This document shows, one piece after another, positions 3,793-48,645 of a DNA stretch of 64,000 bases. Positions within the stretch are counted from its first letter, which is position 1, and each line of letters opens with the position of its first letter. A model generated the notes under the pieces. It worked only from the letters and a program-made list of their open reading frames with translations, was not told the DNA's origin and ran no database searches. The translations under genes and the position numbers were made by a program. The stretch comes from Candidatus Omnitrophota bacterium. GTDB lineage: Bacteria; Omnitrophota; Gorgyraeia; Gorgyraeales; Gorgyraeaceae. Where the stretch lies: the NCBI GenBank assembly GCA_026387235.1, contig JAPLMD010000069.1, positions 26,920 to 90,919 on the forward strand. The letters are read 5' to 3'.

Positions 3793-3793
3793 A

Positions 3794-4691: not shown

Positions 4692-4711
4692 TTATGGTAT
4701 AATCTGACAAT

Positions 4712-6250: not shown

Positions 6251-6254
6251 TAAC

Positions 6255-6839: not shown

Positions 6840-6840
6840 T

Positions 6841-7272
6841 ATGTTAAAAGACGCGGATGTTAAACAAAGAATAGAATTAACCATAACAGGCATAGGTATA
6901 ATTATTTTTATATTTTTGATTATAAGTTATATGCCTAAATCCAGGGATAAAAGAGTTGTTTTAAAAATCGAACCTTATTCTGCTTCGAAAGTTGCTATGG
7001 CTGTGGCTTCCGAAGTAAAATCCTGGGGGAATACGAGATGGGGCAGAGATCCTTTTTTACTGGATGCTTCTAATGTGAAAGAGCAAGGCATGGAAGACCT
7101 GTCTCTTAATGGGATAGTATCTGATATGGAGAATCCGTATGCCATAATAAATAATGAGGTCATCAAACTGGGCGATACAGTAAACGGGATGACCGTTATT
7201 GAGATTAACGAGAAGAGTGTTGTCCTGGAGCAGGATGGCCAGAAGCATACCCTGGAATTGAACATATATTAG
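6841..7272 (+). CDS. pilP: PilP-like pilus assembly protein
   Basis: N-terminal TM anchor. C-terminal beta-rich segment (GIV…AIINNEVIKLGDTVNGMTVIEINEKSVVL) resembles the PilP fold. Start chosen at MLKD, ATG 6841. Confidence 0.45.
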   Translation: MLKDADVKQRIELTITGIGIIIFIFLIISYMPKSRDKRVVLKIEPYSASKVAMAVASEVKSWGNTRWGRDPFLLDASNVKEQGMEDLSLNGIVSDMENPYAIINNEVIKLGDTVNGMTVIEINEKSVVLEQDGQKHTLELNIY

Positions 7273-27197: not shown

Positions 27198-27226
27198 TTG
27201 ACACGAAAGCGTTTACGTGTTATACT
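27198..27226 (+). promoter_or_regulatory. Consensus-like sigma70 promoter TTGACA-17 nt-TATACT upstream of giant gene 1
   Basis: TTGACA at 27198-27203, 17-nt spacer, TATACT at 27221-27226. About 70 nt upstream of the ATG at 27296. A near-identical element is found before gene 3. Confidence 0.6.
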
Positions 27227-27295: not shown

Positions 27296-30200
27296 ATGTC
27301 TGTGAAGCCATTATCTAGAGCAATCTCTATAACCGTGCTCATTACATTTCTTTTCACAAATATCCCATATGCTTCATCTGCCCCCAATTCTTTATTTAAG
27401 AACAAGAAAATAGACTATCAAAAGCTTTCCGATCAGAATCAAGATATTGTCCAGAAAAAGAAAGATATCCTATCTGGCGAAGATTCAAAACAAACCCAAT
27501 CACAGCAAAAACAAGCCCAGAAGATTCTGTCCAGCCATCTATCTGATATATCGCAGATTCATATTCCATCTGAGATAGGAAGGATAGTAGAGGTGCACCA
27601 GGGCACTGGGGCACCAGAGCATCAGGATAAGCTTATAGTGCACATACAAGACCTGCATACAAATCCTGAGGCAGAATATAACCTGGCAAAGATATTAGAG
27701 GTTCTATTAAATGACTATAAGATGGGTCTTGTATGTTCGGAGGGCGCTGATGGAGTTGTTGATACATCTAGTGTATCCACTTTTCCTGATTCCCAGGTAA
27801 GAGAAAAGATCTCCAAGATCTTTGTGAACGCAGGAGAACTCACAGGCGAGGAATACCTATCTATCACCAAATATCCTGATCTTCCCATCTGGGGCATTGA
27901 GAGTAAAGACATCTATTTCAGAAATATCATTGACTTCAATAAGATAATGAAATTCAACCCTGGGTCCCAAATCTTTATCTCCCAGGCTAAAAAAGCCCTG
28001 GAAGAGCTGAAAGCCAGAATCTATACAAAAGAACTGATTGAGCTGGACCAGAAAGAGGCTGATTACAAAGCCCAGAAGATAGAATCTCCTGAATATGTGA
28101 AATATCTTCTCGACTCGGCTGCTTCACAGCCTCGCTCGAAGAATATTCTCTCCAACTACAAAAATATCGGCCTATTGACTGAAACAATAGATGCGGAGAA
28201 AAAGATAGACCAGCTCAAGATAATGAACGAATCCCAAAAACTACTTTTAAACCTCCAGTCTTCCCTTAATGCCAAATCCCTCAACTCTGACATGGATTCT
28301 TTAATGGCAAAATCAAGCCTTTTCAAAGACCAGAAGATTTCACCATTCTCATTCTACAGCTACCTAAAAGACCTTGCAAATAAACACCTGAAGGACGAGT
28401 TTGGCGCAAAATACCCTAATCTGAATGGCTTTGTAGATTACCTCACTAAACTTAATTCTCTTGATTCCACAAAGCTCTTTATTGAATTAGAAGACCTGAA
28501 TTTTGAGATAAAACAAGCCCTTTCCAGAACAGATGAGCAAAAAACCCTTATCAAGGCCCTCAGAAACATAAGCTTCCTTGAAGGCTTTTTTAACCTCAAG
28601 GTCTCCAATGAAGAATTAGACTATTACCTTAATAATAAGGACTTCCATAAAGTAGCATTCTTTGAATCCTTCTTGAAACCAGCTATCAAAAAATACAATA
28701 TCAGCACCTTTATAGACTATAACCCCGATCTTATAGATTCCCATTTAACAGAGCTTGAGGATTTCTACAAGGTTGTAAAAGACCGCGATATCGCAATGGT
28801 AAATAACTCTATCTCTGAGATAGAGAAGCGCAACTCTAAAGTCAGCGCTCTTATTGCAGGAGGGTTTCATACAAAAGGCATCACTAAGCTCCTAAAAGAA
28901 AAAGGCTATTCCTATATAGTCATCTCCCCGTATTCAAAGACAGGTATAAATGAAGAGAACTATCACTATTTATTATCAGGCCAGCGTAAACCCTTAATGG
29001 AATTGGCAGAAAAGCTTAATGCTGCTGCTCTTCGCGTTATTCTTGGATTTGTAAAAGATCCGACCTTTGAAACAGAGCTTAAAAAAACTTTAGCTGCTGC
29101 TGGCATAATAGATAACCAGTTATATTCCGGTGCTAAACCAAGGATGTTATCTTTATTTGCGCTTGGGGCTGCTAAAACTCTATATCTGCGCGATAAAGCA
29201 AACTTTGATTTATCTGCGCTTCCAGCCTATTTTACATCTTCATTTTATACTGAATTAAATAAGCTTGGCTTAGATGTAGAGATAAGAGAGAGCAAATCAG
29301 GCATCCATGTGAAATGCGGGGATAATTACTTTGGCATAAATAAGGAAGATGGGGGGATAATAAAGTCTAATGCCAGCATATTTACCAGTGTATCTGATAA
29401 GAACAGAGTAATGCTGGCAAAAATAAGCGAAGAAGAGACGCTAAAAATTCCAGGGCCTCGTATTTCTGAAGGAATAACTCAGGCAGTTGCAGAAAAATGG
29501 AAAGCTAGAGCAGATATGGTTCCGGATTCGCAAATCAAAGTGATGAGAATAAAAGATTTGGAGATAGAAACTGTATTAATAACAGCTGATTCTGGAGATA
29601 TGCCTGAGGGGATACTGGCTTGGCGTTTGCGCGATAGTAAAAATAGGCTAGTGATAATTACGGAAAGGGAAGTAAAACTTGGAGACAGCTTTTCAGAAGA
29701 ACTTCTGTTTCACGAGCAATTTGAAGAGAATCTAAAACAAGAGCTTAATTATATTACTGACCGTGATCCAGAAAGGCTTAGACATACTAGGCATGCTATT
29801 GCCAGCGCAGTGGAATCTATACTATTTAGTGAGGGCGGGACCAGGCTTACGCCTTTTCATGAATATGCAATAGGCCATAGGATGAGCCTGTTGCACCTTA
29901 AAAGATTGGTCGATGAATATCAAGAACTAGGATTTTATTACAATATGATAGCAGATTTTTTTACTAGGAAAGGAATAGAATATCAAGATAAGGGCATAAC
30001 CATAGAAGCTTTACAGGCCTATGAAAGAAAATTTATAGCAAGAATAAAAGAAGAAATAAGGCACAGGACTACAGAGTCAAGAGCTCGGGCCGGCGCAAGG
30101 AGAAAGGGCAAAGCCGCTGAGGTGCCTAAGATGTATTTAGTGGGGAAAGTAGTTGTCCCTCAAGATGATGCCAGGACCCAGCAGGTGATTGAGCAGGCAA

Positions 30201-33200
30201 GGGGTCAGGAAAGGCTGGTAAGAATAGATGTATCTAAACAAGAGAGAATCACTCCGCAAGGCAGGTTTGCAGATATTTTGCGAGACGCAATCTCGTATTA
30301 TGAAAGACGGGGCGCATCTGATGAAGTAGCTGATTTGCAACAGACTGAATTTTACCTAGTTAGGCCGCAAGAGGATGATCCTAATCGCACTCTTCCAGGA
30401 TTTATTTGGTACGATTCAGATGGACATTACCTTATTGCCAAAGCAATGGAACCTAGACAAGCTTATTTTGGTTATGAGGCTATAGATATCTTAAGAGAAA
30501 AAAATCCAAGGATAGATTTTATTGCCAACATGCTTCTCCAGGTAGCACGATATGCTAAAGATCCTTATGGTAAGTGGGACCCATCTATACTTAACCATAT
30601 TTTGGCAGAGTCAGGAAACTATTTATTGGAAGATGCTCGTTTAATTAAAGAAGTGAGATTTATAATTAACCGCCTTTTTAAAGAAGAAACCTCGCCTGAA
30701 GAGAATGACCGGCTTCAGGGGCTCCTTATAGATATAAAACAACGCAAACCAGTTTTGTTCTATGTAGGGTTAGCTAATTTAGGAAGAACATACCTTCAGG
30801 GGATTTCCCCTAATAGATATCCCTGCGTCACTGCTGCAAATTTGTGTCTTGCCAGGAATTATGCTTTTATGGACCAGCATTTACAAAAGGATGCTTATGT
30901 CTCAGAAATAGACAGGACTATCACGGTTTTTAGAGATGTTTTTAATCCTACCTTAACTAGAGCGATTCCCTGGATGCTTCAGGTGTTAAAGGAGCAGCAG
31001 AATCCAGCTAATCCCAATTTAGTTAAGGGAGAAATACTTATAAAGAAAGGCGATAACTTTTTAGATCTTACTTGCGGGACAGGCATTTTTGGTTTGTTTG
31101 CAGCTTTAAACGGTGCAGAGAGTGTTTTAAGCAGCGATATTAATCCAAGTGCTGTGGCTTGCGCGAACTTTAATGCAAAAAAATTAGGAGTAGCTAAGAA
31201 AATGCAGGCAATACAAAGCGACCTTTTTAATGGTATTCCTAAAGATAGAAAATTTAACATTATCAGTTTTACCCCGCCATTCTTAGATGAGCCGCAATCT
31301 CCAGGCGTGTGGTTAGAAAAAGCTGTATATGACCCTGGATTCAGCCTTTTAACCCGTTTTTTAAATAGGGTTGGTAATTATCTAACTGATGATGGAAAGA
31401 TATTGTTTATAGGCACAGATAAGAGTCAGGGCCCAGAAGGGAAAAACAGCACAGGCCTCATGTTAGATTTAGCAAGACGGAAAGGATTTATCAGTACTAT
31501 TATACGTTCTCAAGAGTTTCATGGAGAAACCTACTCAGTTTATGAACTGACCAGAAGATCTGCTTTAGTGTCCGATAGCGAGATAGATAATCTTGTGGCA
31601 ACATCCCTAAGCTCTGACAAGGAATCAGCTAATTTTGCCATTAGAGAGTTAATTGAACAGGCTCGTTCTGCCTTTGATAGCAATCCTGAATTTTATCAAA
31701 GGCTATTCTTGCATCTCGTCCAGATTTATATTGAAGAATCCTATAACGGTTATGTATCGGAAAGGGTGATAGCTAAACGTAATGCAGGGGAGAGACCAGA
31801 CTTTTATGAAGAACAAAAGGCAGCAACCTATAATGCATCGGCAGCGCGAACAATAAACTGGTTTATTAAAGACTATTGTAGAGATGTTTTGAAATTAGAT
31901 CCTGAAGGCCAAATTGTTGAAGACTATTTTAGTTGCCTTCATATGTTGCCTATTATGAATAGAGATATGAAGAGAAGATTTAGCGAGCGTGATGGCATAG
32001 AGATAGATTCTACTATGATTGTTAATGGAAACCCAGAAGAAGTGCAGATGACCAAGGACTTTTATCGCGCGAGGTTGGGGCGTATATATGATTCTTTGAA
32101 AGTGATTGGCATAAGGGACGATCTATGGCTTGGCAATATAGTAGGTATGATGCCTTTATTTGAGGACTATTTGGCCCAGCCATCAAGAGACCAGGAAGCC
32201 AAGGGTAATAAAAAGGTTATATTGCATGTCTTGGCAGTTAATGGCGGCGCAGGAGCCAGAAATATTCTTCTTACAGCATCTTCTGATGGAAAAGGTGAAA
32301 TCATTCTTGACAATGGCCGCACAATGATGGAACAGGGCATTGAACAGGTAAAAGGCATGGTTCAGGGGTTAGTAGAAAGAAACATATATGGCGAATTTTT
32401 TATTGTTATTCCCTGCGATAACATGATACTCCCAGCCATGTATACAGCTGATGCTTACAGATCAGATAGAGGGTTTTATCTCTATGCAAGGAAGACTGAG
32501 GTTTTAAGGGCATCATTGAATGAACTTAAACATTGGGGGCCGCCGTTTGGCCAGATGTTTGCAAAAAGGGAAACGGGTATCGTCAAAGGTTTTGAAGAAA
32601 AACCAAACATATGGAAATTACTAAACAGAGTCATGATCAATGCTATTGAAGAAAGCAATGAAGAAACTTGCGGAAAAAGCATTTCGGAATTTTTATACAA
32701 CTTAGATACCAGAAGGAACAGGTATTTAGATGACTTGAAACAAAAATCCGGGGATTACGCCTTATACCTTATCGCCCTTCCTATGATTGTTCAGGAGGAG
32801 GTATGGAATTATGTCTATGAAAACGGCGAGGTGGAACCTGAAATCAGGAAGATTATCCCTACTTTTGATGAGTGGAAAAGGTTATATAGCGAAGCTAATA
32901 AACATAAGTCTCGAGTAGAAGGATTGATAAACAAAGTTTTAGATGAAGGAGGCACTGTTTCTTTTACAAATACTTTCTATTTTCTTTTATCCAGGCCTGT
33001 AGCAGAAAAGATTTATACTCTATTTTCACAGCCTACTGAAAGAGAGGACAGCGGTTCTTTCTGGGCAAGAAAGCTTCCCAAAGGCCAGACTCCAAAAATG
33101 GTAGCCGCACTTGACTGGGCAGGCTTAATCCTTACACCCATGACTGTAACCCAGGAAACATGGATGGAAGACTATGAAAAAAGAGGCGCTATGTATTTGG

Positions 33201-36166
33201 CAGAGCAGCAGGTGACTGATTTTATAAGTCAGGCTAGCTCCTTAAAAGAAGCCTATTGTCAAAAATTTAGTATAGCTTCCGAAGCTTATGAAGGCCAAGT
33301 AAATGCTTATCAAGAAAAGGCTGCTAAGGAAGGCATAGTTGAGACAGCTTTTCCTGTTCAGGATACTTATCAGAAAACTTTGAAAGCCTTTTTAGAGAAG
33401 GCACTTAAAAAAGATTTAATCAATGCTTTTGCCGCAGATATTAGATCAGCAATGATACAGGATAGTACTGTGCGAGCCAATGTTCTGGAAAGCGCTGAGA
33501 AAGTCACAACATATACTCACTATGACTGGAATAGAATCTGGGAAATGGCTCTGGACATTGACCTGGCAGCCGGCGGTTTAACATGTGTTAACTTTGGCCC
33601 GATCTGGTCTGATGTTGGTACAATTAAAGAAGCCAAGAGGCTGGCAGATTACGAGGTTTCAAAGGATAATCTTTTAGAGAGGGCTTTATATAGAGGTCTG
33701 TTTGAGCTGCCTATTACCCATGATAAAATATACAATGTTGATTCTAATAAGGGTAAGATTGTATATTCTAGCCCAAACGAATTCTTGCGTTATCGCAGTG
33801 TTATTGATGTTCCAGAAGGCGTAACTTTAATAATAGGAAATAGAGTAAGGATTGCTAATAGTTTTATTCAAATAATAGCCAAAAAAGGGGAAACAGTAAT
33901 AATACCTGATGATACTGCAATAGTAGCTAGTTATTTGCGCTGTTCAATAGGAAAGGAAGGCAAGCCAGGGTCATTTGTGTATAGACACGAGCAGAGAAGA
34001 GGTACTTTAGAATTTTCAGGAGATTTCATTACAACGATCCGGACCATTGAAGGGCCAGTGAGAGGAACCCATCCCATAGATGCAACTACTATTGCATGGA
34101 ACGACGTTCCAGTGGCAGGAACTTATACTCCCAGGATGTTGACTAGGCCATTTCCGGGTATGCCTGGACCCTTGCGAGACAAGCCTAAAGTTACTTCTGT
34201 TGTTGTTAGGGAAAAAACATATAGTTTTTATAGAAGTCGTCTCGATCGCATTATAACTACGATTTGGGAGAGAGCACAGTCACAAGAGGTCAGATTTATC
34301 CCTGAAAAGGCCATTGGAAAAATTATAGACATGGTTCAGAATGATAGAGCAAAAAGTGAAGGCAGAGGCTATATTTCAAGTTTCCTTTTTATAGGAGGCA
34401 ATGTCGGAGGTTTAGAGCCTCAAGTTTATACTCAGACATTAGAGAGATTAAGTAAGCATTATTTATATTATACTACTCCAGAAAGAAGGATTGGAGAAGA
34501 AGGGGTTTTCGGAAGGCGAGGCATGTCAGGTTTACAACATTCGTTAAGATCAATGCAACTGAATGATAAATATACTACTGAATTTCTGAATAGAGCCAAA
34601 GACCTGATTAAAGAAAGAAACATGAGAGGGCTTAAAGCATGGATAGAAGAAGCTAAACAGATAGATCCAGAAGAAGCAGGGATTAAGACTTTACGTTGTG
34701 CATTGGACTATTTAAGTAAAGAAGGGAGCCAGGTTGTACTTTACAGGATAGTTAGCAGGGCAGAAATAATAAAAGAGTATATTAGAGGCGAACATGGCGA
34801 AGAATTGGATATAGCTGACGCAGAACGAAAAGCCCGTGATTTATTAAGTGGGAAAGATCCTTATAAAGTTGATGAGCAGGATTTCTTAAGATTAATAGTA
34901 AGAGGGGAGACAGATCCAAATGACGCACATTCAGGCAGCCTGTCACATGACTTGCTTAGACACTATGAAGAAGGAGGTATTTTAAAAGGAGCTCTTGTAG
35001 AGAACGTTGCTAAATATAATATACCCAAAAAGGCCTTAATTAGTATTATGTGCGTCTTTCGCTGCCCTAGCAGGTCGGAGCTATTCTCTGATTTAGCTCA
35101 GCTGCCTCAAGAAGATATAGGCCTTTTAGAAAGTAAACTTGAGGATGCGATGTTTACGCATGACGAGATGTTATCAAGAAAGGTGAAAGAACTCCTTCAT
35201 AAGCATGGTAAGCCAATTACTGTAACCATAGATGGCTTAGCCATGACAGGCAAGAGCACGATGAGTAAAGATATAAGCAATGTCTTAGGATTTACACGTA
35301 TACCTGGAGGAGAGATAAGCAGGCTGATAACAGCTGGCCTGCTTGGAACAGGTATAAACCGTAATACTATAGAATCTACAGAGCCTGATACGATAGTTGC
35401 TGCAGTGCAGCAAACCTTGGAGGACGTGAAATATAAATTAATAGGCGGCGCTGTAACATTGTGCTATAAAGACACAGATTTGCTTAATAATCAAGATCTT
35501 TTAAGTCAACTCCGCAGCCAAGATATCAATGACAATATATCTTCACTTGTTATGAACAGTAACATTGTCAGAAATCTGCTTATAATGCATATCATGGAAT
35601 TGATAAAACAAGTCCATGATCTTGGTTTCAGCGTGGTGATAGATGGAAGATTAGCTGGAACTGAAATAGAACGGCAAGCAGATGTAAAGATTTGTTTGGA
35701 CACAAGCTATGAAGCCATGGCCAGAGCAGATGCCCGTAGAATTATTGACCAAAAAGGTAGTATGACTGCTTACATAGAGAGAACCGGCAATACTATGGCA
35801 GAGTATAGGCAAATTATAAGAAGTGGAGGGTTGCCAGGTGTGGAAAGAGCGATAATGCAGACTTATTATCAGCCAGCAGAAGAAAGAGATGCGAGTGATG
35901 TTTTAGATGTGGCTGAGTATCTATCCAGCAGAGAACAAGATGATGAGATTACTGTTATTTCATCAAGGGGCGTAGAAGATAGATTATCTATTAAGGATGT
36001 AAGAGAAACGATATTTGCAGAGATTATTAAAAAAATTAGCAATGCAGAAGATGCTGTAACTGTACTGAATTTAAGAGAGGGAACCCAGCCAGGAGTACCT
36101 TCAGATGCTGGTGTGTATCTCGAAACAGCTGTTCAAGGACTTAGAACCACAGGTCAAGGCCTATAA
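27296..36166 (+). CDS. Giant secreted multidomain protein (2956 aa). Signal peptide, paralogous N-domain, class-I SAM amino-methyltransferase domain, possible NTP-transferase-like stretch, shared C-module, cytidylate-kinase-like P-loop domain.
   Basis: Sec-type signal peptide MSVKPLSRAISITVLITFLFTNIPYASSA|P. N-domain (~27383-29020) ~80-85% identical to the gene 3 N-domain. MTase motif I DLTCGTG (31063-31083) and motif IV FTPPF (31268-31282). LAVNGGAGARN…FIVIPCDNM (32215-32430) weakly nucleotidyltransferase-like. Cmk-like ITVTIDGLAMTGKST (P-loop) and VVIDGRLAGTE…KICLDTSYEAMARADARR (35213-35745). Confidence 0.85.
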   Translation: MSVKPLSRAISITVLITFLFTNIPYASSAPNSLFKNKKIDYQKLSDQNQDIVQKKKDILSGEDSKQTQSQQKQAQKILSSHLSDISQIHIPSEIGRIVEVHQGTGAPEHQDKLIVHIQDLHTNPEAEYNLAKILEVLLNDYKMGLVCSEGADGVVDTSSVSTFPDSQVREKISKIFVNAGELTGEEYLSITKYPDLPIWGIESKDIYFRNIIDFNKIMKFNPGSQIFISQAKKALEELKARIYTKELIELDQKEADYKAQKIESPEYVKYLLDSAASQPRSKNILSNYKNIGLLTETIDAEKKIDQLKIMNESQKLLLNLQSSLNAKSLNSDMDSLMAKSSLFKDQKISPFSFYSYLKDLANKHLKDEFGAKYPNLNGFVDYLTKLNSLDSTKLFIELEDLNFEIKQALSRTDEQKTLIKALRNISFLEGFFNLKVSNEELDYYLNNKDFHKVAFFESFLKPAIKKYNISTFIDYNPDLIDSHLTELEDFYKVVKDRDIAMVNNSISEIEKRNSKVSALIAGGFHTKGITKLLKEKGYSYIVISPYSKTGINEENYHYLLSGQRKPLMELAEKLNAAALRVILGFVKDPTFETELKKTLAAAGIIDNQLYSGAKPRMLSLFALGAAKTLYLRDKANFDLSALPAYFTSSFYTELNKLGLDVEIRESKSGIHVKCGDNYFGINKEDGGIIKSNASIFTSVSDKNRVMLAKISEEETLKIPGPRISEGITQAVAEKWKARADMVPDSQIKVMRIKDLEIETVLITADSGDMPEGILAWRLRDSKNRLVIITEREVKLGDSFSEELLFHEQFEENLKQELNYITDRDPERLRHTRHAIASAVESILFSEGGTRLTPFHEYAIGHRMSLLHLKRLVDEYQELGFYYNMIADFFTRKGIEYQDKGITIEALQAYERKFIARIKEEIRHRTTESRARAGARRKGKAAEVPKMYLVGKVVVPQDDARTQQVIEQARGQERLVRIDVSKQERITPQGRFADILRDAISYYERRGASDEVADLQQTEFYLVRPQEDDPNRTLPGFIWYDSDGHYLIAKAMEPRQAYFGYEAIDILREKNPRIDFIANMLLQVARYAKDPYGKWDPSILNHILAESGNYLLEDARLIKEVRFIINRLFKEETSPEENDRLQGLLIDIKQRKPVLFYVGLANLGRTYLQGISPNRYPCVTAANLCLARNYAFMDQHLQKDAYVSEIDRTITVFRDVFNPTLTRAIPWMLQVLKEQQNPANPNLVKGEILIKKGDNFLDLTCGTGIFGLFAALNGAESVLSSDINPSAVACANFNAKKLGVAKKMQAIQSDLFNGIPKDRKFNIISFTPPFLDEPQSPGVWLEKAVYDPGFSLLTRFLNRVGNYLTDDGKILFIGTDKSQGPEGKNSTGLMLDLARRKGFISTIIRSQEFHGETYSVYELTRRSALVSDSEIDNLVATSLSSDKESANFAIRELIEQARSAFDSNPEFYQRLFLHLVQIYIEESYNGYVSERVIAKRNAGERPDFYEEQKAATYNASAARTINWFIKDYCRDVLKLDPEGQIVEDYFSCLHMLPIMNRDMKRRFSERDGIEIDSTMIVNGNPEEVQMTKDFYRARLGRIYDSLKVIGIRDDLWLGNIVGMMPLFEDYLAQPSRDQEAKGNKKVILHVLAVNGGAGARNILLTASSDGKGEIILDNGRTMMEQGIEQVKGMVQGLVERNIYGEFFIVIPCDNMILPAMYTADAYRSDRGFYLYARKTEVLRASLNELKHWGPPFGQMFAKRETGIVKGFEEKPNIWKLLNRVMINAIEESNEETCGKSISEFLYNLDTRRNRYLDDLKQKSGDYALYLIALPMIVQEEVWNYVYENGEVEPEIRKIIPTFDEWKRLYSEANKHKSRVEGLINKVLDEGGTVSFTNTFYFLLSRPVAEKIYTLFSQPTEREDSGSFWARKLPKGQTPKMVAALDWAGLILTPMTVTQETWMEDYEKRGAMYLAEQQVTDFISQASSLKEAYCQKFSIASEAYEGQVNAYQEKAAKEGIVETAFPVQDTYQKTLKAFLEKALKKDLINAFAADIRSAMIQDSTVRANVLESAEKVTTYTHYDWNRIWEMALDIDLAAGGLTCVNFGPIWSDVGTIKEAKRLADYEVSKDNLLERALYRGLFELPITHDKIYNVDSNKGKIVYSSPNEFLRYRSVIDVPEGVTLIIGNRVRIANSFIQIIAKKGETVIIPDDTAIVASYLRCSIGKEGKPGSFVYRHEQRRGTLEFSGDFITTIRTIEGPVRGTHPIDATTIAWNDVPVAGTYTPRMLTRPFPGMPGPLRDKPKVTSVVVREKTYSFYRSRLDRIITTIWERAQSQEVRFIPEKAIGKIIDMVQNDRAKSEGRGYISSFLFIGGNVGGLEPQVYTQTLERLSKHYLYYTTPERRIGEEGVFGRRGMSGLQHSLRSMQLNDKYTTEFLNRAKDLIKERNMRGLKAWIEEAKQIDPEEAGIKTLRCALDYLSKEGSQVVLYRIVSRAEIIKEYIRGEHGEELDIADAERKARDLLSGKDPYKVDEQDFLRLIVRGETDPNDAHSGSLSHDLLRHYEEGGILKGALVENVAKYNIPKKALISIMCVFRCPSRSELFSDLAQLPQEDIGLLESKLEDAMFTHDEMLSRKVKELLHKHGKPITVTIDGLAMTGKSTMSKDISNVLGFTRIPGGEISRLITAGLLGTGINRNTIESTEPDTIVAAVQQTLEDVKYKLIGGAVTLCYKDTDLLNNQDLLSQLRSQDINDNISSLVMNSNIVRNLLIMHIMELIKQVHDLGFSVVIDGRLAGTEIERQADVKICLDTSYEAMARADARRIIDQKGSMTAYIERTGNTMAEYRQIIRSGGLPGVERAIMQTYYQPAEERDASDVLDVAEYLSSREQDDEITVISSRGVEDRLSIKDVRETIFAEIIKKISNAEDAVTVLNLREGTQPGVPSDAGVYLETAVQGLRTTGQGL

Positions 36167-36341: not shown

Positions 36342-36396
36342 GTACACAATAAAAATATAGAATTTTTGTTTGACAGAAAAGCGGAAGAGGGGAGCC

Positions 36397-38130
36397 ATGT
36401 TTTTTAAATCATTTAAGAAAATCACTCCAATTATTGCCCTGGGCATATTTATAGCTGTTAATACTATACATGCGGCGTCTGATTCCAAATCCATATTCAA
36501 AAATAAAAAAATTGACTACCAAAAACTGAGCACTGAAGAAGAAGAAGCCCTTCGAAGAAAAAAAGCTATGCGCAGCGAAGAGGCTGTCAATAAACCTAAA
36601 GTCCAGAAAAAGGAAACCCAGAAGATAGTTTTTTCGCGTCTTTCTGATATATCGTTCATCCACATCCCCCAGGAAACAGGGAAAATAGCGGAAATATACC
36701 AGAGCCCTAACCAGGATAATTCCAGGCTCGTAGTGCATATTCAGGACTTACATACTAATCCGGAAGCAACGCTTAACCTGGCCAGGATACTGGAAATATT
36801 GTTTAAAGACTATAATCTGGGGTTAGTGTGTTCAGAAGGGGCAGAGGGCCCGGTTGATACTTCCAGCGTTGCCAGTTTTCCTGACCCAGAAGTCAGGGAA
36901 AAAGTAGCCAAGCTTTTTGTTGATTCAGGAGAGCTCACAGGAGAGGAGTATTTATCCATAACAAAATATCCGGATCTACCCATATGGGGCATTGAAAATA
37001 AAGATATCTATTTTAAAAATATCGAGGAATTTAACAGCATAATGAAGTTTAATCATGATTCCCAGGCTTTTATCTCCCAGACTAAAAAGGCGTTAGAAGA
37101 ATTAAAACCAAAAATTTATTCGAAAGAGATGCTGGAGATAGACCAGAAAGAAGACGATTACGAACAGCAGACAATAGAAACAACCGATTACTTAAAGTAC
37201 CTGTCTTTATATCTTCGGAAACTGAACATCCCGGCAGACAGCTATAAAAATATAACGCTATTAAATGAGACTATAATACAGGAATCCAGGATTGACCAGC
37301 AAAAGGTCAAGCAGGAATCCCAGGACATGCTTTTGAATTTACAGTCAGCTATTGCCAAGAAGCCCAATAGCACGGATATGGATAGTTTAATGGCTAAGGC
37401 CACCCTGTTTAAGGACCAGAAAATATCGCCTTTTTCATTCTATAATTATCTAAAAGAGCTGGCAGGTAAAGAGTTAGGGGGCCAGTTGTCAAAATATCCA
37501 AATGTAATGGGCTTTGTGGATTATCTTGCAAAAGTCAATTCGCTTGATTCCGCAAAACTTTTTACGGAGATAGAGAATCTGACCTACGAAATAAAACAAA
37601 AGCTCGCTGTAAATAATGAACAGAAAGAGCTTGTCCTTGCCCTGCGCAATATAAAATTTCTTGAGACCTTTTTTAATCTTGAAATTTCCAACGAGGACCT
37701 GGAGTATTATTTAAATAACAGGGATTTTCACAAAGTAGCGTTCTTTAAGGATGTTTTAGCGGGTTTGAGGGCCAAGGCAGGGCTTTCGACCCAGGCAGAT
37801 TATATAGATTTTAATCCTGATTTAATAGATTCTCACCTAGGGGAGATAGAAGATTTCTATGAAACCGCAAAATCCAGGGATCTGGCTATGTTTAATAACG
37901 CTGTCTCAGAAATAGAAAAGCGCAACGTAAGAGTGGCTGCTCTGGTAACAGGCGGATTTCATACAAAAGGCCTGACCAGGCTTTTAAAGGATAAAGGCTA
38001 TTCCTATATAGTTATATCTCCGTATGCAAAAACCGGCATAGACGAAGAGAATTATCGTTTTCTGTTATCAGGTAAGCGCAAGCCAATAGAAGAAATAATA
38101 AAACAATTTGAGGAAACTAAGCAAAAATAA
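36397..38130 (+). CDS. Secreted stand-alone copy of the ~560-aa N-domain (paralog of genes 1 and 3 N-termini)
   Basis: Signal peptide MFFKSFKKITPIIALGIFIAVNTIHAAS|D followed by the SIFKNKKIDYQKLS motif. Colinear with the gene 1 and gene 3 N-domains throughout (VHIQDLHTNPEA…CSEGAEG…GGFHTKG…LLSGKRKP). The ORF-track start at 36370 is a TTG that forms part of a TTGACA box; the ATG at 36397 is preferred. Confidence 0.8.
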   Translation: MFFKSFKKITPIIALGIFIAVNTIHAASDSKSIFKNKKIDYQKLSTEEEEALRRKKAMRSEEAVNKPKVQKKETQKIVFSRLSDISFIHIPQETGKIAEIYQSPNQDNSRLVVHIQDLHTNPEATLNLARILEILFKDYNLGLVCSEGAEGPVDTSSVASFPDPEVREKVAKLFVDSGELTGEEYLSITKYPDLPIWGIENKDIYFKNIEEFNSIMKFNHDSQAFISQTKKALEELKPKIYSKEMLEIDQKEDDYEQQTIETTDYLKYLSLYLRKLNIPADSYKNITLLNETIIQESRIDQQKVKQESQDMLLNLQSAIAKKPNSTDMDSLMAKATLFKDQKISPFSFYNYLKELAGKELGGQLSKYPNVMGFVDYLAKVNSLDSAKLFTEIENLTYEIKQKLAVNNEQKELVLALRNIKFLETFFNLEISNEDLEYYLNNRDFHKVAFFKDVLAGLRAKAGLSTQADYIDFNPDLIDSHLGEIEDFYETAKSRDLAMFNNAVSEIEKRNVRVAALVTGGFHTKGLTRLLKDKGYSYIVISPYAKTGIDEENYRFLLSGKRKPIEEIIKQFEETKQK

Positions 38131-38166: not shown

Positions 38167-38195
38167 TTGACAAGAAAACGGTTACATGGTATACT
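38167..38195 (+). promoter_or_regulatory. Duplicated sigma70-like promoter TTGACA-17-TATACT upstream of gene 3
   Basis: ttttttatttgacaagaaaacggttacatggtatacttttatatag is near-identical to tttttatttgacacgaaagcgtttacgtgttatactttatagtag upstream of gene 1. Confidence 0.6.
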
Positions 38196-38240: not shown

Positions 38241-41200
38241 ATGACTTTTAATACTATGAAGAAGGTTGCTTCTATAGTTACATTTATTAGTTTTATAGCC
38301 ACTAATAGCATATATGCCGCGCCTGAGTCAAAGTCTGTATTCAAGAACAAGAAGGTGGACTATCAGAAGATTAATGACCAGAATAATGGCGTTATTCAGA
38401 GGAAAAAGGCCATTCTTAACGGAGAAGACGCAAACCAGGTTGAGTCCCAGCAAAAAGAGGCTCAGAAGATACTCTCATCCCATCTTTCTGATATATCACT
38501 TATCCATATTCCTGCAGAGTTGGGAAGAATTACCGAAGTCTACCAGAACCCAGATGCTGAAAACTCCAGGCTAATTGTCCATATCCAGGATCTTCATACG
38601 AACCCTGAGGCAGAGTATAACCTTGCCAAGATACTTGAGCTTTTATTGAATGATTATAAAATGGGCCTGGTGTGCTCAGAAGGTGCTGATGGCGCAGTGG
38701 ATACTTCAAGTATTTCAAGTTTCCCGGATTATGCAACAAGGGAAAAGGTCTCAAAGATATTTGTCAATGCAGGCGAGCTTACAGGAGAGGAATACCTCTC
38801 AATAACAAAATACCCTGCTCTACCTATCTGGGGAATTGAAAATAAGGAAATATATTTCAAAAATATAATTGATTTTAATAAGATAATGAAATTTAATCCC
38901 CAGTCACAGGTTTTTATATCACAGGCAAAAAAGGCGCTTGAAGAACTTAAAAACAAGCTTTATACAAAAGAGCTTTTGGAATTAGACCAGAAGGGATTAG
39001 ATTATAAGGCGCAGAAACTTGAGTCAGCAGATTATATAACATACCTTACAGGATATGTCCAAAAACTTAATATCCCAACGCTCAAATATGAGAATGTTTC
39101 GCTATTGAATGAAACTATTGATATGGAGAAAAGAATAGGCCAGCTGAAGATAATGAACGAATTGCAGAATCTATTACTGAATCTGCAGGCGGCGTTTTTA
39201 TCCAAATCCATGAAAGGAGAATCTGATTCTTTAAACGCCAACGCCCAGCTTTTCAAAGACCAGAAGATATCGCCGTTTTCATTTTATAGTTACCTGAAAG
39301 ACCTTGCGAATAAGCACCTTAAAGACGAATTTTCTGCAAAATATACAGCTATAAATAGCTTTGTAACCTACCTCACAAAAGTAAATTCATTAGATTCCAC
39401 AAAGCTATTCATAGAATTGGAAGACCTTAATTTTGAAATAAAAGAAGCGCTCTGTAGAACAGAGGAACAAAAAACGCTTGTGAAGGCGCTCCGCAATATA
39501 GATTTCCTTGAAGGGTTTTTTAATCTGAAGGTCTCAAATGAAGAATTAGATTATTATCTTGAAAATAAAGAATCCCATAAGGTGGCGTGGTTCAAATCTG
39601 CAATAACGGGCATAACAGGCAAAATAGGCCTAACGGGCCAAACGAACTACATAGATTATAATTCGGCTTTAATAGACCCGCATCTAACTGAACTTGAAGA
39701 ATTTTACAAGGTTGTAAAAGAGCGCGATGTGGCAATGGTGGATAATTCATTGTTTGAGATTGAGAAACGCAGATCAAAGGTAAGTGCATTAATAGCAGGC
39801 GGATTCCATACAAAAGGCATAACAAGGCTTTTAAAGGATAAGGGGTATTCTTATATAGTAGTATCTCCGTATTCAAAGACAGATATGGATGAGCAAAATT
39901 ACCATTTCTTATTGTCAGGAAAAAGAAAACCCCTTGTAGAATTATTGAAACAATTAGATTTAGGTGGAATTGTAAAAAGATACATCACTTCTACCGGCCT
40001 TCGAGTAAATATGGGTTGTGATACAGATATGGATGCGGCTTTTGGACGTCAAGTAATTCCTGAACTTGCAAAAATATGGGATTTTGAACCAGAGGATTTG
40101 CATCGATGGAATTTACCTCCAAGAGTGGTAGCTTGTTTAGTATTTCAAAGCGCAGCAGCAGGAAGAACTGACTTTAAAGGATGGCCGTCAATAGTTGGGT
40201 TAGAGCTAAATGATATAGGTGTGTTAAAGCTTACTTCTCGTGAAGGGTATATTTACTATGTTGAAGTTACCGCTGATAATAAAGTAAAAGAAGCAAAGCC
40301 AGATGCTTTTAATAATGGCACAGTAGTTGTAAATATACCATCAGCAGGCACAGGGCAAATAATCGCAAAGGAGCTACAAAAGGTAGATTTAAGTGCTGTA
40401 GAACCGGAAGCAGCCGTAGGTTCTCTTTTTAACCTTTTGGATTTACTTATACGCTTACGTGATGGTCAGGGAATCACAGAAATTTCAACTGGGAAATTAA
40501 AAACGGAGCGCACTGCAGTTGGTGTCAGAATGGTTGACAGAGAAATAAACGCAGGCCGTTTGCTCGGCATATTAGAGGACAAAGAAACATCAAGGGGAGT
40601 TGTTAAATTCACAGAGCCATTTAAAGATATTACCCGTGCAGAATTAGTAGAAATAAATACAGAAATAGCAAAAATCCTGCCTAAAGGTTTAGGCAGAGGG
40701 ACATTAGATCAGTTAGATCAAGTTAAACTAGAGCAAGTAAGAAAGATAGTAGAAACTTTTAAAAAAGTGGACGGATTACGAACACAACAGGGTAGAGAAG
40801 CGGAGTTTTTGGTTCAAAATGTGCAGAAGTTGTCAAGAGTTGATGGAGGTATAGTTGCAGGTATTGGATTACAGGATATTCATGGCCGGGTGTTTAAGCT
40901 AAATGGCCAGTTTTTTAACGATGATGGTAGCTATACCGAGGAGTTGCAGAAGTTTATGGATACTCTCTCTGATAATTCGGTCCAAGAGATGATACATGCA
41001 GGGATTATGTATTATGATATTCGCTCTAAATACTGGAAAGATAACCCTGCATTTACAGTGGCATTTGCATTTGCCTTTGCAAAGAAGTTGCAGGAAATAG
41101 AGGGCAGGCAAGATGGTATAGTGCTTCATATAGGCGTCGATGCATATCATAAGCATTTTGAAACAGCTCAGGTTTTTGCTGATGCAATATTGAGGACAGG

Positions 41201-42854
41201 GATATGCGATAATGGAGGAGGTATTTATTACTGGGGCGTTATAAATGGCGGTGATACGCGAAATTATGGTCAGCTTTATCATGCAATGAATAATGGAAAA
41301 GGCGGAAACTGGGTTTATTTTACCATGAGCCATGTTCGCGATGATTTTATAGGAGCTAAGTTAGGCAGAGGCGCTAAAGTATACTGCGGATCTGAAATTC
41401 GGCATTGCGAAGACGTAACAAGCGGCACATTATATGATGCTATAGTTGAAAAAGATTTTACTCCAGTAAAACGTAATATTCCTGTTGGGAATATTGTAAC
41501 TGTGAGTAATGTTATAAAAAATAATATTGAGGTTGCAGCAGATATGATAAGAGCAACTTCTGATAGCAGTGATATACCAACAAATGAGTTATTGAAAAGT
41601 GAAAAAGCAAAATTTTATGTTCTTATGGGTGGCAGTCCAATGGCTAAGAATCTAGTGGATATGCTCAAGGCTCTTGGTGCTGATATAGAGGTTGAAAGTG
41701 GAAGCGTGGATAAGAATTTTAATACAGCCAATATTATAGACCCTAATGAGCTTAATAATCCTAATGCGCATCCGCTTCAAGTTGCTATAAATAAAAGATT
41801 GAGAGAGATAGCGAAAGAGACAGGCAGGACGGTTTTAGTAGTAGACCCTGATGCTGATAGAGGATCGATTGTTGCTATAAATGAAGAAGGAGAAGCAATA
41901 GCTTTATCAGGTTCGAAGTTATTACTTCTGGCTATGGAACCACTGGCGCGCAGTTATAAAGCTAAAGGACTTCCTCCTCCTACTGTAATTTGCGACATGA
42001 GAACAGGGGTAAGCGCTAAAGATTTAGCAAAGGTGCTTAATGAAAGAGGATTTCCAATCAAGGTTGTTCCACATGAGGCTGGTTATCCATTTTTTATGAG
42101 AGGAATGGCGAGCTTGCCAGCTGATCTGGCTGTAGAAAATACTACGCATGCATTTATGAACCCTATGACAAACCCGAAATGGGGCGCGCCAGAAGAATAT
42201 AGAATGCCAAATGGTGAGGGTTATCAAGGTGGTGATAATGCCGCTCTTTTCCTTATTTATTTGGCAGGCTGTATGGTCCATCAGTGGGAAGGTAGAACCC
42301 CTGCCCAGCAATTAGAATGGCTTGAACAAGAATATGGCATTAAAAAGACTATAGATGATGAACGGAAACCCAAGATGCCAGTGAAGGATGATAAGTACAA
42401 ATATATTATTGCAGGTAGAATGAAAATGTTGGCTAAACAATATTGTACTGATAAAACTAGGTTTTTAATTAATTTCGATGATCCTAAGGTTAGTTTGGTA
42501 AGCGGTGTCCATCTGACAAATGTTAAAACAGGCGCCATGGTTTTAGTAAGATTTTCTAATACAGGTTCAACTTTTACGATTTCTGGTGAAGCCTACTATA
42601 GAAAAGATTTAGGCGAAGGGCGTGAGAGAGAAGATTTGAATGAAATGTTGGGCTTGGGGTATTGGATTATGATTACCGCAGTGAATCAATTGCACGCCGA
42701 GGGCAATGTTTTTGATTTTGATCCCAAGGATGCTGCTGAATTGGAAAATCAACCAATTGTAGCTGAGATGAATCAAATGCTTACAGACACTCAACACGAA
42801 GGTTTGCAGCCTGCTATTACAAAGATATCTAGAGACATAGGTTCAGGTATATGA
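38241..42854 (+). CDS. Giant secreted protein (1537 aa): signal peptide, N-domain, unknown middle region, C-terminal alpha-D-phosphohexomutase (phosphoglucomutase)-like domain
   Basis: Signal peptide MTFNTMKKVASIVTFISFIATNSIYAA|P. Phosphohexomutase signatures: active-site-Ser-like YFTMSHVRDD (~41321), metal loop VDPDADRGSIV (41844-41861), phosphate-binding loop RFSNTGSTFTISGEAYY (42548-42600), comparable to RLSGTGSxGATIRLY of PGM. Confidence 0.8.
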   Translation: MTFNTMKKVASIVTFISFIATNSIYAAPESKSVFKNKKVDYQKINDQNNGVIQRKKAILNGEDANQVESQQKEAQKILSSHLSDISLIHIPAELGRITEVYQNPDAENSRLIVHIQDLHTNPEAEYNLAKILELLLNDYKMGLVCSEGADGAVDTSSISSFPDYATREKVSKIFVNAGELTGEEYLSITKYPALPIWGIENKEIYFKNIIDFNKIMKFNPQSQVFISQAKKALEELKNKLYTKELLELDQKGLDYKAQKLESADYITYLTGYVQKLNIPTLKYENVSLLNETIDMEKRIGQLKIMNELQNLLLNLQAAFLSKSMKGESDSLNANAQLFKDQKISPFSFYSYLKDLANKHLKDEFSAKYTAINSFVTYLTKVNSLDSTKLFIELEDLNFEIKEALCRTEEQKTLVKALRNIDFLEGFFNLKVSNEELDYYLENKESHKVAWFKSAITGITGKIGLTGQTNYIDYNSALIDPHLTELEEFYKVVKERDVAMVDNSLFEIEKRRSKVSALIAGGFHTKGITRLLKDKGYSYIVVSPYSKTDMDEQNYHFLLSGKRKPLVELLKQLDLGGIVKRYITSTGLRVNMGCDTDMDAAFGRQVIPELAKIWDFEPEDLHRWNLPPRVVACLVFQSAAAGRTDFKGWPSIVGLELNDIGVLKLTSREGYIYYVEVTADNKVKEAKPDAFNNGTVVVNIPSAGTGQIIAKELQKVDLSAVEPEAAVGSLFNLLDLLIRLRDGQGITEISTGKLKTERTAVGVRMVDREINAGRLLGILEDKETSRGVVKFTEPFKDITRAELVEINTEIAKILPKGLGRGTLDQLDQVKLEQVRKIVETFKKVDGLRTQQGREAEFLVQNVQKLSRVDGGIVAGIGLQDIHGRVFKLNGQFFNDDGSYTEELQKFMDTLSDNSVQEMIHAGIMYYDIRSKYWKDNPAFTVAFAFAFAKKLQEIEGRQDGIVLHIGVDAYHKHFETAQVFADAILRTGICDNGGGIYYWGVINGGDTRNYGQLYHAMNNGKGGNWVYFTMSHVRDDFIGAKLGRGAKVYCGSEIRHCEDVTSGTLYDAIVEKDFTPVKRNIPVGNIVTVSNVIKNNIEVAADMIRATSDSSDIPTNELLKSEKAKFYVLMGGSPMAKNLVDMLKALGADIEVESGSVDKNFNTANIIDPNELNNPNAHPLQVAINKRLREIAKETGRTVLVVDPDADRGSIVAINEEGEAIALSGSKLLLLAMEPLARSYKAKGLPPPTVICDMRTGVSAKDLAKVLNERGFPIKVVPHEAGYPFFMRGMASLPADLAVENTTHAFMNPMTNPKWGAPEEYRMPNGEGYQGGDNAALFLIYLAGCMVHQWEGRTPAQQLEWLEQEYGIKKTIDDERKPKMPVKDDKYKYIIAGRMKMLAKQYCTDKTRFLINFDDPKVSLVSGVHLTNVKTGAMVLVRFSNTGSTFTISGEAYYRKDLGEGREREDLNEMLGLGYWIMITAVNQLHAEGNVFDFDPKDAAELENQPIVAEMNQMLTDTQHEGLQPAITKISRDIGSGI

Positions 42855-48571: not shown

Positions 48572-48591
48572 TATTTGCTAAATAGTATTTC

Positions 48592-48645
48592 AGGGACGGT
48601 TCTGGTGGAGCCAATAATAGAACCGTCCCTCAATTTTGGTATTTT
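48592..48645 (+). terminator. Rho-independent terminator-like hairpin after giant gene 4
   Basis: Perfect 11-bp stem AGGGACGGTTC (48592-48602) / GAACCGTCCCT (48620-48630), 17-nt loop, then CAATTTTGGTATTTT. 20 nt after the gene 4 stop; gene 5 ATG at 48646 follows immediately. Confidence 0.6.

Follow-up and report, generated by a model that had tools for sequence, protein, structure and literature searches.

A 2,956-residue Omnitrophota protein with a signal-like N-terminus, a TIKI/TraB-fold module and a putative nucleotide-sugar activation unit

RESULTS

Gene 1 and the layout of its product

The window analysed in this study is a 64,000-nucleotide stretch of a Candidatus Omnitrophota bacterium genome (contig JAPLMD010000069.1 of assembly GCA_026387235.1, positions 26,920 to 90,919), and its subject is gene 1 (27296..36166, + strand), a single uninterrupted open reading frame (ORF) of 2956 codons. 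The 2956-amino-acid (aa) product is 100% identical to P0001, an NCBI protein from a metagenome-assembled genome (MAG), named '(d)CMP kinase [Candidatus Omnitrophica bacterium]'. Gene 1 is the first of six large + strand genes lying between proS and rimP, with products of 2956 (g1), 586 (g2), 1537 (g3), 1906 (g4), 658 (g5) and 898 (g6) aa. Behind a signal-like N-terminus and a conserved N-terminal domain (the N-module), gene 1 carries, all on the + strand, a methyltransferase domain, a predicted sugar-1-phosphate nucleotidylyltransferase (NTase) with a beta-helix, a conserved region C and a domain derived from cytidylate kinase (Cmk). A preliminary description of this DNA had proposed methyltransferase, Cmk-like and NTase-like segments in gene 1; all three calls hold, and every motif quoted for them is present at the position given or within a few bases of it.

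As the source is a MAG and the NCBI name was given from one small domain, it might be supposed that the long ORF is a chimera of cmk, methyltransferase and pyrophosphorylase genes, produced by mis-assembly or frameshifts. We regard such an artefact as very improbable. The frame runs without interruption for 8.9 kb in DNA of about 40% G+C, aa 940-2914 have a co-linear counterpart in P0079, an independent protein, the N-module with long cargo behind it is encoded on dozens of independent contigs, and no domain is close to a housekeeping copy (the best Cmk match reaches ~39 bits).

The predicted nucleotidylyltransferase and beta-helix

The NTase-like stretch, recognized by LAVNGGAGARN (32231-32263) and FIVIPCDNM (32399-32425), had been the weakest of the earlier proposals. 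A query with PF00483 and PF12804 had been suggested for it; profiles of this type (PF00483/PF12804/PF07959) gave no match, as there was none in Pfam at E<=0.1 nor in NCBIfam at E<=1. A distant relative, P0116, matches PF07959 weakly and below its cut-off (E=4e-4). An exhaustive HMMER search with aa 1431-2630 against 1.84 billion representative proteins returned only 40 proteins, which define three conserved blocks: A (aa ~1538-1965), B (aa ~2065-2265) and C (aa ~2300-2615). The consensus of block A reads L-x-L-(N/D)-(G/A)-G-x-G-(T/S)-R, K-G-E, G-E-x-F-x-x-x-P-x-D-N, F-x-E-K-P and N-T-F-Y-F, and these motifs are conserved among 14-15 relatives. Such a set is the grammar of sugar-1-phosphate nucleotidylyltransferases (the RmlA, GlmU and AGPase families). 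The corresponding motifs of gene 1 are GGAGAR, KGE (aa 1666), PCDN (aa ~1707), EEKP (aa 1767) and NTFYF, the catalytic residues being assigned by motif analogy.

The proposal had been staked on a Rossmann-like GT-A fold, and this is the fold predicted. An AlphaFold2 model of aa 1538-2270, built on the alignment of the relatives, is confident (pLDDT 86.4, pTM 0.86), and a Foldseek search with it returned AGPase (E=6e-5, probability 1.0), GDP-mannose pyrophosphorylase and FKP. In the predicted model a Rossmann-like GT-A nucleotide-binding core is followed by a left-handed beta-helix. The catalytic domain (32183..33115, aa ~1630-1940), larger than the stretch flagged before, has a helical insertion of ~115 aa in its core (aa ~1772-1885), and a helical linker of ~150 aa (aa ~1941-2092) precedes the beta-helix, which is hexapeptide-repeat-like (33743..34081, aa ~2150-2262). 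By predicted fold and motifs, aa ~1630-2262 are a sugar-1-phosphate nucleotidylyltransferase, and the modelled beta-helix completes the pyrophosphorylase architecture. As the family is invisible to Pfam and NCBIfam, the capacity for synthesis of nucleoside diphosphate (NDP)-sugars is likely to be under-called in these genomes.

The Cmk-derived and methyltransferase domains

The C-terminal P-loop domain, nucleoside-monophosphate (NMP)-kinase-like (35216..35935, aa 2641-~2880), had been likened to cytidylate kinase on account of ITVTIDGLAMTGKST in the P-loop region (35216-35260), VVIDGRLAGTE (35633-35665) and the C-terminal KICLDTSYEAMARADARR (35687-35740). Homology is borne out by Pfam Cytidylate_kin (PF02224; E=1.6e-16, 61.1 bits against a gathering threshold of 26, aa 2643-2821, profile positions 1-153/211), by Cmk chains of the PDB (matches to E=5e-9) and by the NCBIfam equivalog model TIGR00017, for which gene 1 scores 58.2 bits with a cut-off of 135.55. 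Because the PF02224 threshold is passed and the TIGR00017 cut-off is missed, the domain appears to be a true Cmk homologue, and neither an equivalog nor an orthologous CMP kinase.

Residues were mapped by alignment to E. coli Cmk (sequence identical to 1kdo). The P-loop GLAMTGKST (aa 2647-2655) keeps the pattern GxxxxGK(S/T); R2676, R2759 and R2785 align with R41, R110 and R131, and S101, D129-G-R131, G134-T135 and probably D185 are also retained. Changed positions are S36 (G2671), Y40 (S2675), D132 (L2786), R181 (Ser) and R188 (E2874), the last alignment being uncertain owing to an insertion of ~35 aa in the final third of the domain. Thus, of the Cmk layout claimed earlier, the P-loop, DGR..GT and C-terminal motif are present, but the equivalent of DGRDIGT is DGRLAGT, with the Asp lost; the catalytic residues, which were to be checked, are likewise divided, P-loop, R41, R110 and R131 being kept but S36, Y40, D132 and R188 changed. 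In Cmk, S36, R110 and D132 form hydrogen bonds with cytosine and Y40 stacks on it, and the Yersinia mutants R110A, R131A and R188A are inactive (PMC3603445). Two of the three hydrogen-bonding side chains and the stacking Tyr40 are therefore lost in gene 1. Because of the changes at S36, Y40, D132, R181 and R188 and the low TIGR00017 score, a specificity for CMP is not supported. The altered pocket appears to be a stable state and not decay, because P0079 has the same G and L at the S36 and D132 positions.

A search with this domain alone retrieved only two fragments (P0119/P0120), from a 1.3-kb contig labelled 'Candidatus Desantisbacteria'; the fragment is 84% identical to the gene 1 domain. 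An error in binning or labelling is the probable reason, not a second phylum.

The methyltransferase domain (31013..31555, aa ~1240-1420) was correctly described as an amino-type class-I S-adenosylmethionine (SAM) methyltransferase. It contains FLDLTCGTGIFG (31058-31093) in the region of motif I, LDLTCGTG, and NIISFTPPF (31256-31282) with motif IV. Pfam MTS matches aa 1247-1334 (E=7e-10, 39 bits against a gathering threshold of 23), as do four further class-I methyltransferase models of Pfam. The best NCBIfam scores, under the respective curated cut-offs, were those of PRK14968 'putative methyltransferase' (PRK14968.1-3; E=1.3e-23, profile positions 25-195/198) and TIGR00537 (HemK2/MTQ2; E=7e-17). 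The PrmC, PrmB, PrmA, RsmC and RsmD models score lower, all below cut-off. PDB matches extend to E=3e-8, MJ0882 (1dus) and human N6AMT1/HemK2 being the best. The clade of the segment had been left to be determined; by profile and structure matches it sides with the HemK2/MJ0882 group. On the other hand, motif IV had been claimed to be of the (D/N/S)PP(F/Y) type, and it does not conform to (D/N/S)-P-P-(Y/F): the residues are T-P-P-F (aa 1326-1329), with Thr in the first position. The same TPPF occurs in P0079, which is 47% identical.

Region C and the remaining blocks of gene 1

Region C (34370..35149, aa 2359-2618) is a conserved domain of no named family. It recurs in g6 (aa 613-879, 45% identity), in P0086 (363 aa, composed of signal and region C only) and in stand-alone proteins of 280-315 aa that have no signal. 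A PDB search with phmmer gave nothing significant, and a profile search of the PDB reached nucleoside-diphosphate kinase (NDK) at E~0.2. An identity as NDK was considered and is not established: hhalign probabilities are 10-18% over 19-122 columns, only a 19-residue motif aligns (VG-T-P--A-PGS/T-R, within VG-T-P--AHPGSLR ... N-A-x-H), and the region C HMM does not match the canonical NDK domain of P0093.

The block at 30113..30565 (aa ~940-1090) lies beside NTase-like modules in other giant proteins; similar sequences were found in P0079, in P0017 and, in two copies, in P0081, and in those only, and it has no Pfam, NCBIfam or PDB match. The wider interval aa 585-1245 gave nothing in PDB or NCBIfam searches. 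A word-indexed search of 5.8 billion proteins with it also returned no match, but the identical P0001 was missed too, which is a limit of candidate ranking and not evidence of absence. For aa ~600-940, no relatives were detectable by NCBIfam, PDB or word-indexed protein searches.

The signal-like N-terminus and the N-module

The first 27 residues (27296..27376, aa 1-27) form a family-specific signal-peptide-like segment with the consensus (K/R)K-x-x-S-h-region-F-x-x-(T/S)N-x-x-(Y/F)(A/G) followed by (A)P, and then a leader S-x-F-K-N-K-K-x-D-Y. In gene 1 a K/R-containing n-region and an h-region of ~13 residues precede YASS and AP; AlphaFold2 predicts a helix at aa 4-21, and no further hydrophobic helix was found in the protein. 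The segment resembles a cleavable Sec signal, from which export of the protein would be predicted. It is conserved in 34 proteins (35 regex matches, one of them spurious), including g3, g4, g6, P0084 and P0086, and a related variant is present in P0079. The rest of the N-module is missing behind the signal-type N-terminus in g4, g6, P0079, P0084 and P0086.

The N-module (27557..28975, aa ~88-560) has an alpha/beta core with the parallel beta-sheet of the TIKI/TraB/ChaN/erythromycin-esterase superfamily, interrupted by a helical insertion of ~310 aa. Its fold comparators are the Bcr-type 'succinoglycan biosynthesis proteins' 2rad and 2qgm, HopBA1, a TraB-family protein, EreC, ChaN and the MARTX effector RRSP; profiles of the TraB, Ere and ChaN families do not match its sequence. 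Five residues, D119, H121, E149, R497 and H525, do not vary among 30-39 sequences, whose identity falls to ~20%. The reference constellations are E3900/H3902/E3930/R4001/H4030 in RRSP and H85/E113 in Bcr135. The distance from His to Glu is 28, as in RRSP and Bcr135, and that from Arg to His is 28, compared with 29 in RRSP; the correspondence of catalytic residues rests on spacing and fold. Because the invariant residues reproduce the catalytic set of RRSP and Bcr135, including its spacings, the N-module is probably an active hydrolase.

A family with a constant N-terminal part and variable cargo

Seventy-seven proteins of 1.6-5.0 thousand residues (kaa) match gene 1, essentially over aa 1-~580 only, at 45-72% identity for the nearer and down to ~21% for the more distant ones; the exception is P0017, which also shares the block at aa ~957-1089. 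Where the organisms are named, they are Omnitrophota and a few Elusimicrobia. Downstream, the 77 proteins carry Pfam domains of PGM, PFK, enolase, PGK, class-II FBA, GlpX, transaldolase, UDPGP, PGI, glutamate dehydrogenase (GDH), aminotransferases and PPDK, as well as SecA-like, DUF89, radical SAM, PP2C/FHA, Ser/Thr kinase and Lon/AAA domains and enzymes of glycogen metabolism, so that the downstream parts that can be named by Pfam are mostly enzymes of cytoplasmic type. A locus search starting from a single protein gave six loci, all of close relatives; the close relatives stem from MAGs of Omnitrophota. The order rseP-ispG-proS-[N-module giant gene] is kept in two other MAGs of Omnitrophota type (L001 1-5300 and L003 600-6400) and the cargo differs: domains I and II of PGM follow the N-module in L003, and none was recognised in L001. 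One record among these two is labelled 'uncultured Planctomycetia'.

The cargo of gene 1 itself recurs. In P0079 (2304 aa), which is 47% identical and co-linear over aa 940-2914 of gene 1, the order is again methyltransferase, NTase, beta-helix, region C and Cmk, and P0081 (7252 aa) contains the conserved block with the NTase unit twice, plus region C and a methyltransferase. Because of this co-linearity in P0079 and the repeated block and NTase unit in P0081, the cargo does not appear to be a chance fusion. The two copies in P0081, of a unit of ~3 kaa (block, NTase and beta-helix; ~2125-2917 and ~5181-5991), are equally similar to gene 1, which suggests that a large segment of this bigger giant protein was duplicated internally. 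In P0093 an NTase-like region is followed by a canonical NDK, and in P0089 region C is combined with a dNMP kinase and a uridine-kinase-like P-loop. This recurrent pairing of NTase and nucleotide kinases would fit a unit for both sugar activation and recycling of the nucleotide.

The other genes of the array

The signal and N-module are common to g1, g2 and g3 (60-70% identity), and the same signal stands on g1, g2, g3, g4 and g6. The product of g2 (36370..38130, + strand, 586 aa) consists of signal and N-module alone, with no cargo and no Pfam domain, is 61% identical to aa 1-574 of gene 1, and could be the hydrolase in stand-alone form. The ORF is listed with TTG as its start, and the signal-like segment begins at Met10. 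In g3 (38241..42854, + strand) the signal and N-module (70% identity to gene 1) are followed by a divergent phosphohexomutase (41322-42569, + strand, aa 1028-1443), which has all four loops: phosphoserine T-M-S-H (TMSHV, aa 1028), metal D-P-D-A-D-R (aa 1202), sugar E-N-T-T-H (aa 1299) and phosphate R-F-S-N-T-G-S (aa 1437). Pfam sees only its domain II, weakly (PGM_PMM_II, E=6e-4), and phmmer against the PDB finds nothing significant for the C-terminus.

The gene g4 (42851..48571, + strand) overlaps g3 by 4 nt. It encodes signal and leader, no N-module, and two enzymes recognised by NCBIfam, PGI (aa ~750-990, E=2e-57, the profile being matched in part only) and class-1 FBPase (aa ~1600-1885, E=1e-46). 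A second, weak FBPase-like stretch occupies aa 1244-1429 (NF006781, E=2e-15). In the spacer between g4 and g5 (48572-48645) lies a perfect inverted repeat of 11 bp, rich in G+C (GGGACGGTTCT...AGAACCGTCCC), with a T-rich stretch behind it; this may be a terminator after g4. The product of g5 (48646-50622, + strand, 658 aa) lacks both a signal and any recognisable domain, and that of g6 (50558..53254, + strand, 898 aa) has the family signal, an HAD hydrolase (aa 334-530) and the copy of region C. As listed, g6 starts with TTG and overlaps g5 by 65 nt; the signal-like segment begins at ~aa 25, and the true start may lie downstream.

The preliminary description had raised the idea that the array might encode every step from fructose-1,6-bisphosphate (FBP) to an NDP-hexose. 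With FBPase and PGI in g4, the phosphohexomutase loops in g3 and the NTase of gene 1, it is plausible that the array covers the route from FBP through fructose 6-phosphate, glucose 6-phosphate and hexose-1-phosphate to NDP-hexose.

Flanks and promoter-like sites

The array is flanked by housekeeping genes, uppS, cdsA, dxr, rseP, ispG and proS on the 5' side and rimP, nusA, infB, trpS, scpA, scpB and pheA on the 3' side; the + strand holds nearly all genes of the region. Upstream of gene 1 there is a promoter-like site, TTGACA-17-TATACT with a TG extension (27198..27226, + strand), and a near-identical one with similar flanks precedes g3 (38167-38195); both agree with the consensus in 11/12 positions. 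Region-wide, the total count of promoter-like sites is not above shuffle expectation. The likeness of the two sites and of their flanks suggests that the promoter was duplicated along with the 5' part of the gene.

At 2903-7272 of the window, ~20 kb to the 5' side of the array, lie pilM/N/O and genes for pseudopilins, which are GspH-like and have the N-terminal methylation motif. A preprint describes loci for type II secretion or pili close to giant genes of Omnitrophota (West-Roberts et al. 2023, bioRxiv 10.1101/2023.11.21.568195). The proximity seen here may or may not be meaningful.

DISCUSSION

We propose, at a probability of about one half, that gene 1 belongs to a modular 'enzyme-carrier' family of Omnitrophota and some Elusimicrobia, and that its cargo is a nucleotide-sugar activation unit. 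Catalytic activity, the nucleotide and sugar used, the coupling of the pathway, the role of the N-module and localisation are what we infer here from the domains, folds and conserved motifs described above. The shared N-terminal signal would bring the products of g1-g4 and g6 to one membrane-associated site. There, FBPase and PGI of g4 and the phosphohexomutase of g3 could convert FBP to hexose-1-phosphate, which the transferase of gene 1 would join to a nucleoside triphosphate (NTP) to give NDP-hexose, and the P-loop domain would re-phosphorylate the nucleotide released. The N-module may trim or process the carriers. As a working guess, the enzymes would act where NTP and SAM exist, and the simplest place is the cytoplasmic face of the cell's own membrane, to which they could be tethered by an uncleaved N-terminal helix. 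Localisation is the weakest step of the explanation.

Several observations weigh against such an activation unit. In the Gly-rich loop of the NTase, gene 1 has Ala (GGAGAR) where its relatives have Thr/Ser, although the Arg is kept. The Cmk-like domain has lost S36, Y40, D132 and probably R181 and R188, motif IV of the methyltransferase is the non-canonical TPPF, and in region C the conserved His of the family is replaced by Arg (CVFRCPS) and a family Arg by Ser (GSLS); the g6 copy retains both. Because of these substitutions, some domains of gene 1 may bind rather than catalyse. Neither Pfam nor NCBIfam scans revealed a glycosyltransferase in the array that would use the NDP-hexose. The N-terminus also resembles a cleavable Sec signal, with a short h-region and small residues before A-P, in a protein with no other hydrophobic helix; taken at face value, it would place NTP- and SAM-dependent enzymes outside the cytoplasm. 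Relatives with transmembrane (TM) clusters after the N-module were subjected to a positive-inside test, which is crude (Kyte-Doolittle) and gave conflicting results: in P0037 and P0049 the N-module side comes out as cytoplasmic, and P0054 suggests the opposite.

The substitutions bring up the possibility that the enzyme-derived domains are kept chiefly to bind ligands or proteins, within a surface protein whose role is structural or adhesive. The changes S36G, Y40S, D132L and R188E in the Cmk-like domain, His to Arg and Arg to Ser in region C, NPPY to TPPF in the methyltransferase and T/S to A in the NTase would all agree with a scaffold of pseudoenzymes, as would NCBIfam scores that are all far under the equivalog cut-offs, and the partial match of the PGI profile in g4. 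However, the motifs for binding nucleotide and SAM are kept, as are the phosphate-binding arginines, also in the 47%-identical relative; the Arg, Lys, Asp and E-K-P of the NTase are present; the active-site residues of the N-module are invariant down to ~20% identity; and the array enzymes form a coherent series of consecutive steps, which would not be expected of random binding modules. We consider such a scaffold unlikely. The erosion of specificity residues in the Cmk-like domain, region C and the methyltransferase is real and conserved, and it could fit changed substrates or binding-only roles.

The signal-like N-terminus leads to a different alternative, in which it is a true Sec signal that is cleaved, and the whole protein is exported, either to the surface or 'coat' of the cell or into a host or prey cell. 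The N-terminal part would then be a trafficking and processing module and the variable C-terminal part a payload, as in MARTX or polymorphic toxins, with enzymes acting inside a partner cell, or on its metabolites once it has been lysed or invaded. Delivery of this kind could explain why the signal-peptide features are kept in 34 family members, more strongly than a generic signal would be, and why gene 1 has no further TM segment. It also agrees with the finding that, in the same place behind rseP-ispG-proS, the giant gene of two other genomes keeps its N-module and has different cargo, and with a fold that the N-module has in common with the secreted effector HopBA1 and the MARTX domain RRSP. 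In the literature, Omnitrophota have been proposed to be epibionts or predators, their giant proteins are mostly predicted to have signal peptides and/or TM segments, and sugar-phosphate enzyme domains in them are predicted to be extracellular.

On the other hand, the cargo of gene 1 requires ATP, NTP or SAM, and relatives carry radical-SAM, SecA-like, PFK, PGK and Ser/Thr-kinase domains, which are normally active only in a cytoplasm. The mature N-terminus would be strongly basic (S-x-FKNKKxDYQK), which disfavours Sec export in model Gram-negatives. Nothing like a translocation or pore-forming region could be recognised. In P0037 and P0049 the K/R-rich flank of the first TM cluster is the one facing the N-module, which would make this side cytoplasmic. 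Delivery of the cargo seems to us a strong rival, though less likely than the cytoplasmic reading. Its boldest form, for which the odds are longer still, would have the signal and the TIKI-fold module serve as a system dedicated to trafficking and processing, by which an ultra-small epibiotic or predatory bacterium exports swappable blocks of central-metabolic enzymes onto or into a partner cell. If this were true, it would be a 'polymorphic enzyme cargo' system, with the logic of MARTX or polymorphic toxins and delivering metabolism instead of toxins, here a full line from FBP to NDP-hexose with its own nucleotide recycling.

The locus also bears on annotation. A protein of 2,956 aa has been named '(d)CMP kinase' after one small domain that lacks the conserved cytosine pocket, and pathway reconstructions that count such domains as housekeeping enzymes in these MAGs may mislead. 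The preliminary description knew of no precedent for domains of this sort in a secreted protein of some 3000 aa, but two preprints report methyltransferase, PGI, FBPase, PGM and FBA domains in giant proteins of Omnitrophota that bear signal peptides or TM segments. The 'Archaeovorins' of Omnitrophota contain methyltransferase, TPI, PGI, FBPase, PGM/PMM, FBA and PPDK domains, and an extracellular location is predicted for their enzymes, a prediction that the authors doubt (West-Roberts et al. 2023, bioRxiv 10.1101/2023.11.21.568195). Among proteins of at least 10 kaa, a class of 'multi-enzyme metabolic cluster' with, among others, a sugar-metabolism module was distinguished, and 94% had a signal peptide and/or TM segments (Nielsen & Lui 2026, bioRxiv 10.64898/2026.06.07.730766). 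Giant ORFs have been discussed as possible adhesins (Seymour et al. 2023).

The portions of these two preprints that were read or searched by term say nothing of the TIKI/TraB-fold N-module, the FKP-like NTases, region C or the Cmk-derived domain. To the extent of those portions, what appears new here is a family of 1.6-5 kaa proteins in which a conserved signal and TIKI-fold module are joined to swappable cargo at a fixed locus; an FKP-like nucleotidylyltransferase family missed by profile libraries, together with region C and a Cmk-derived domain with a remodelled base pocket; and the reading of the array as one line from FBP to NDP-hexose. The proteins are of tractable size, since 3 kaa can be cloned, in contrast to giants of 30-150 kaa. 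Their common signal and TIKI-fold module, with its active site intact, offers a shared handle on localisation and processing, and the FBPase, PGI, phosphohexomutase, nucleotidylyltransferase and NMP-kinase-like domains are readable as a single pathway.

The N-module shares with the TIKI/TraB/PrgY/ChaN/erythromycin-esterase superfamily, including RRSP and the type III effector HopBA1, a parallel beta-sheet core with flanking helices and the series acidic-x-His, Glu 28 residues later, Arg, and His after 28-29 more, which is invariant in the N-module family. It differs in the ~310-aa helical insertion that splits the core, in Asp instead of the first Glu, and in standing always directly after the signal-like N-terminus and ahead of enzyme cargo. 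The methyltransferase domain resembles HemK2/MTQ2 (N6AMT1) and MJ0882 in full-length matches to the PRK14968 and hemK_rel_arch models, in motif I, in the acidic post-I residue and in the x-P-P-F of motif IV, whereas it has Thr for Asn/Asp/Ser in that motif and scores under all family cut-offs. With Cmk (PF02224, TIGR00017, 1kdo) the terminal domain has in common the homologous fold, the P-loop GxxxxGKST and the NMP-binding insert with V-R (R110), but it is the last domain of a 3-kaa chain and has the altered pocket and the ~35-aa insertion.

The closest solved structure to the NTase is the N-terminal pyrophosphorylase part of FKP, the L-fucokinase/GDP-fucose pyrophosphorylase of Bacteroides (PDB 9iis, 9iit). 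With FKP, AGPase and the GDP-mannose pyrophosphorylases it shares the Gly-rich loop with Arg, the Lys, the Asp-Asn and the E-K-P motif. Identity is only 12-14%, however, and the NTase has the ~115-aa core insertion and the ~150-aa helical linker and is joined to region C and the Cmk-like domain and not to a GHMP sugar kinase. At the level of whole proteins, the nearest systems are the Archaeovorins and multi-enzyme metabolic clusters. They too are long chains of Omnitrophota with a signal peptide and/or TM segments, they combine methyltransferase, kinase, HAD and sugar-phosphate domains (PGI, FBPase, PGM/PMM, FBA and PPDK), and they pose the same paradox of localisation. The difference lies in scale and arrangement: those surveys were made at sizes of at least 10 or at least 30 kaa, whereas gene 1 encodes 2,956 aa in a tandem array of paralogues of 0.6-3 kaa, and its N-module relatives, at 1.6-5.0 kaa, fall below the size by which giants were defined there.

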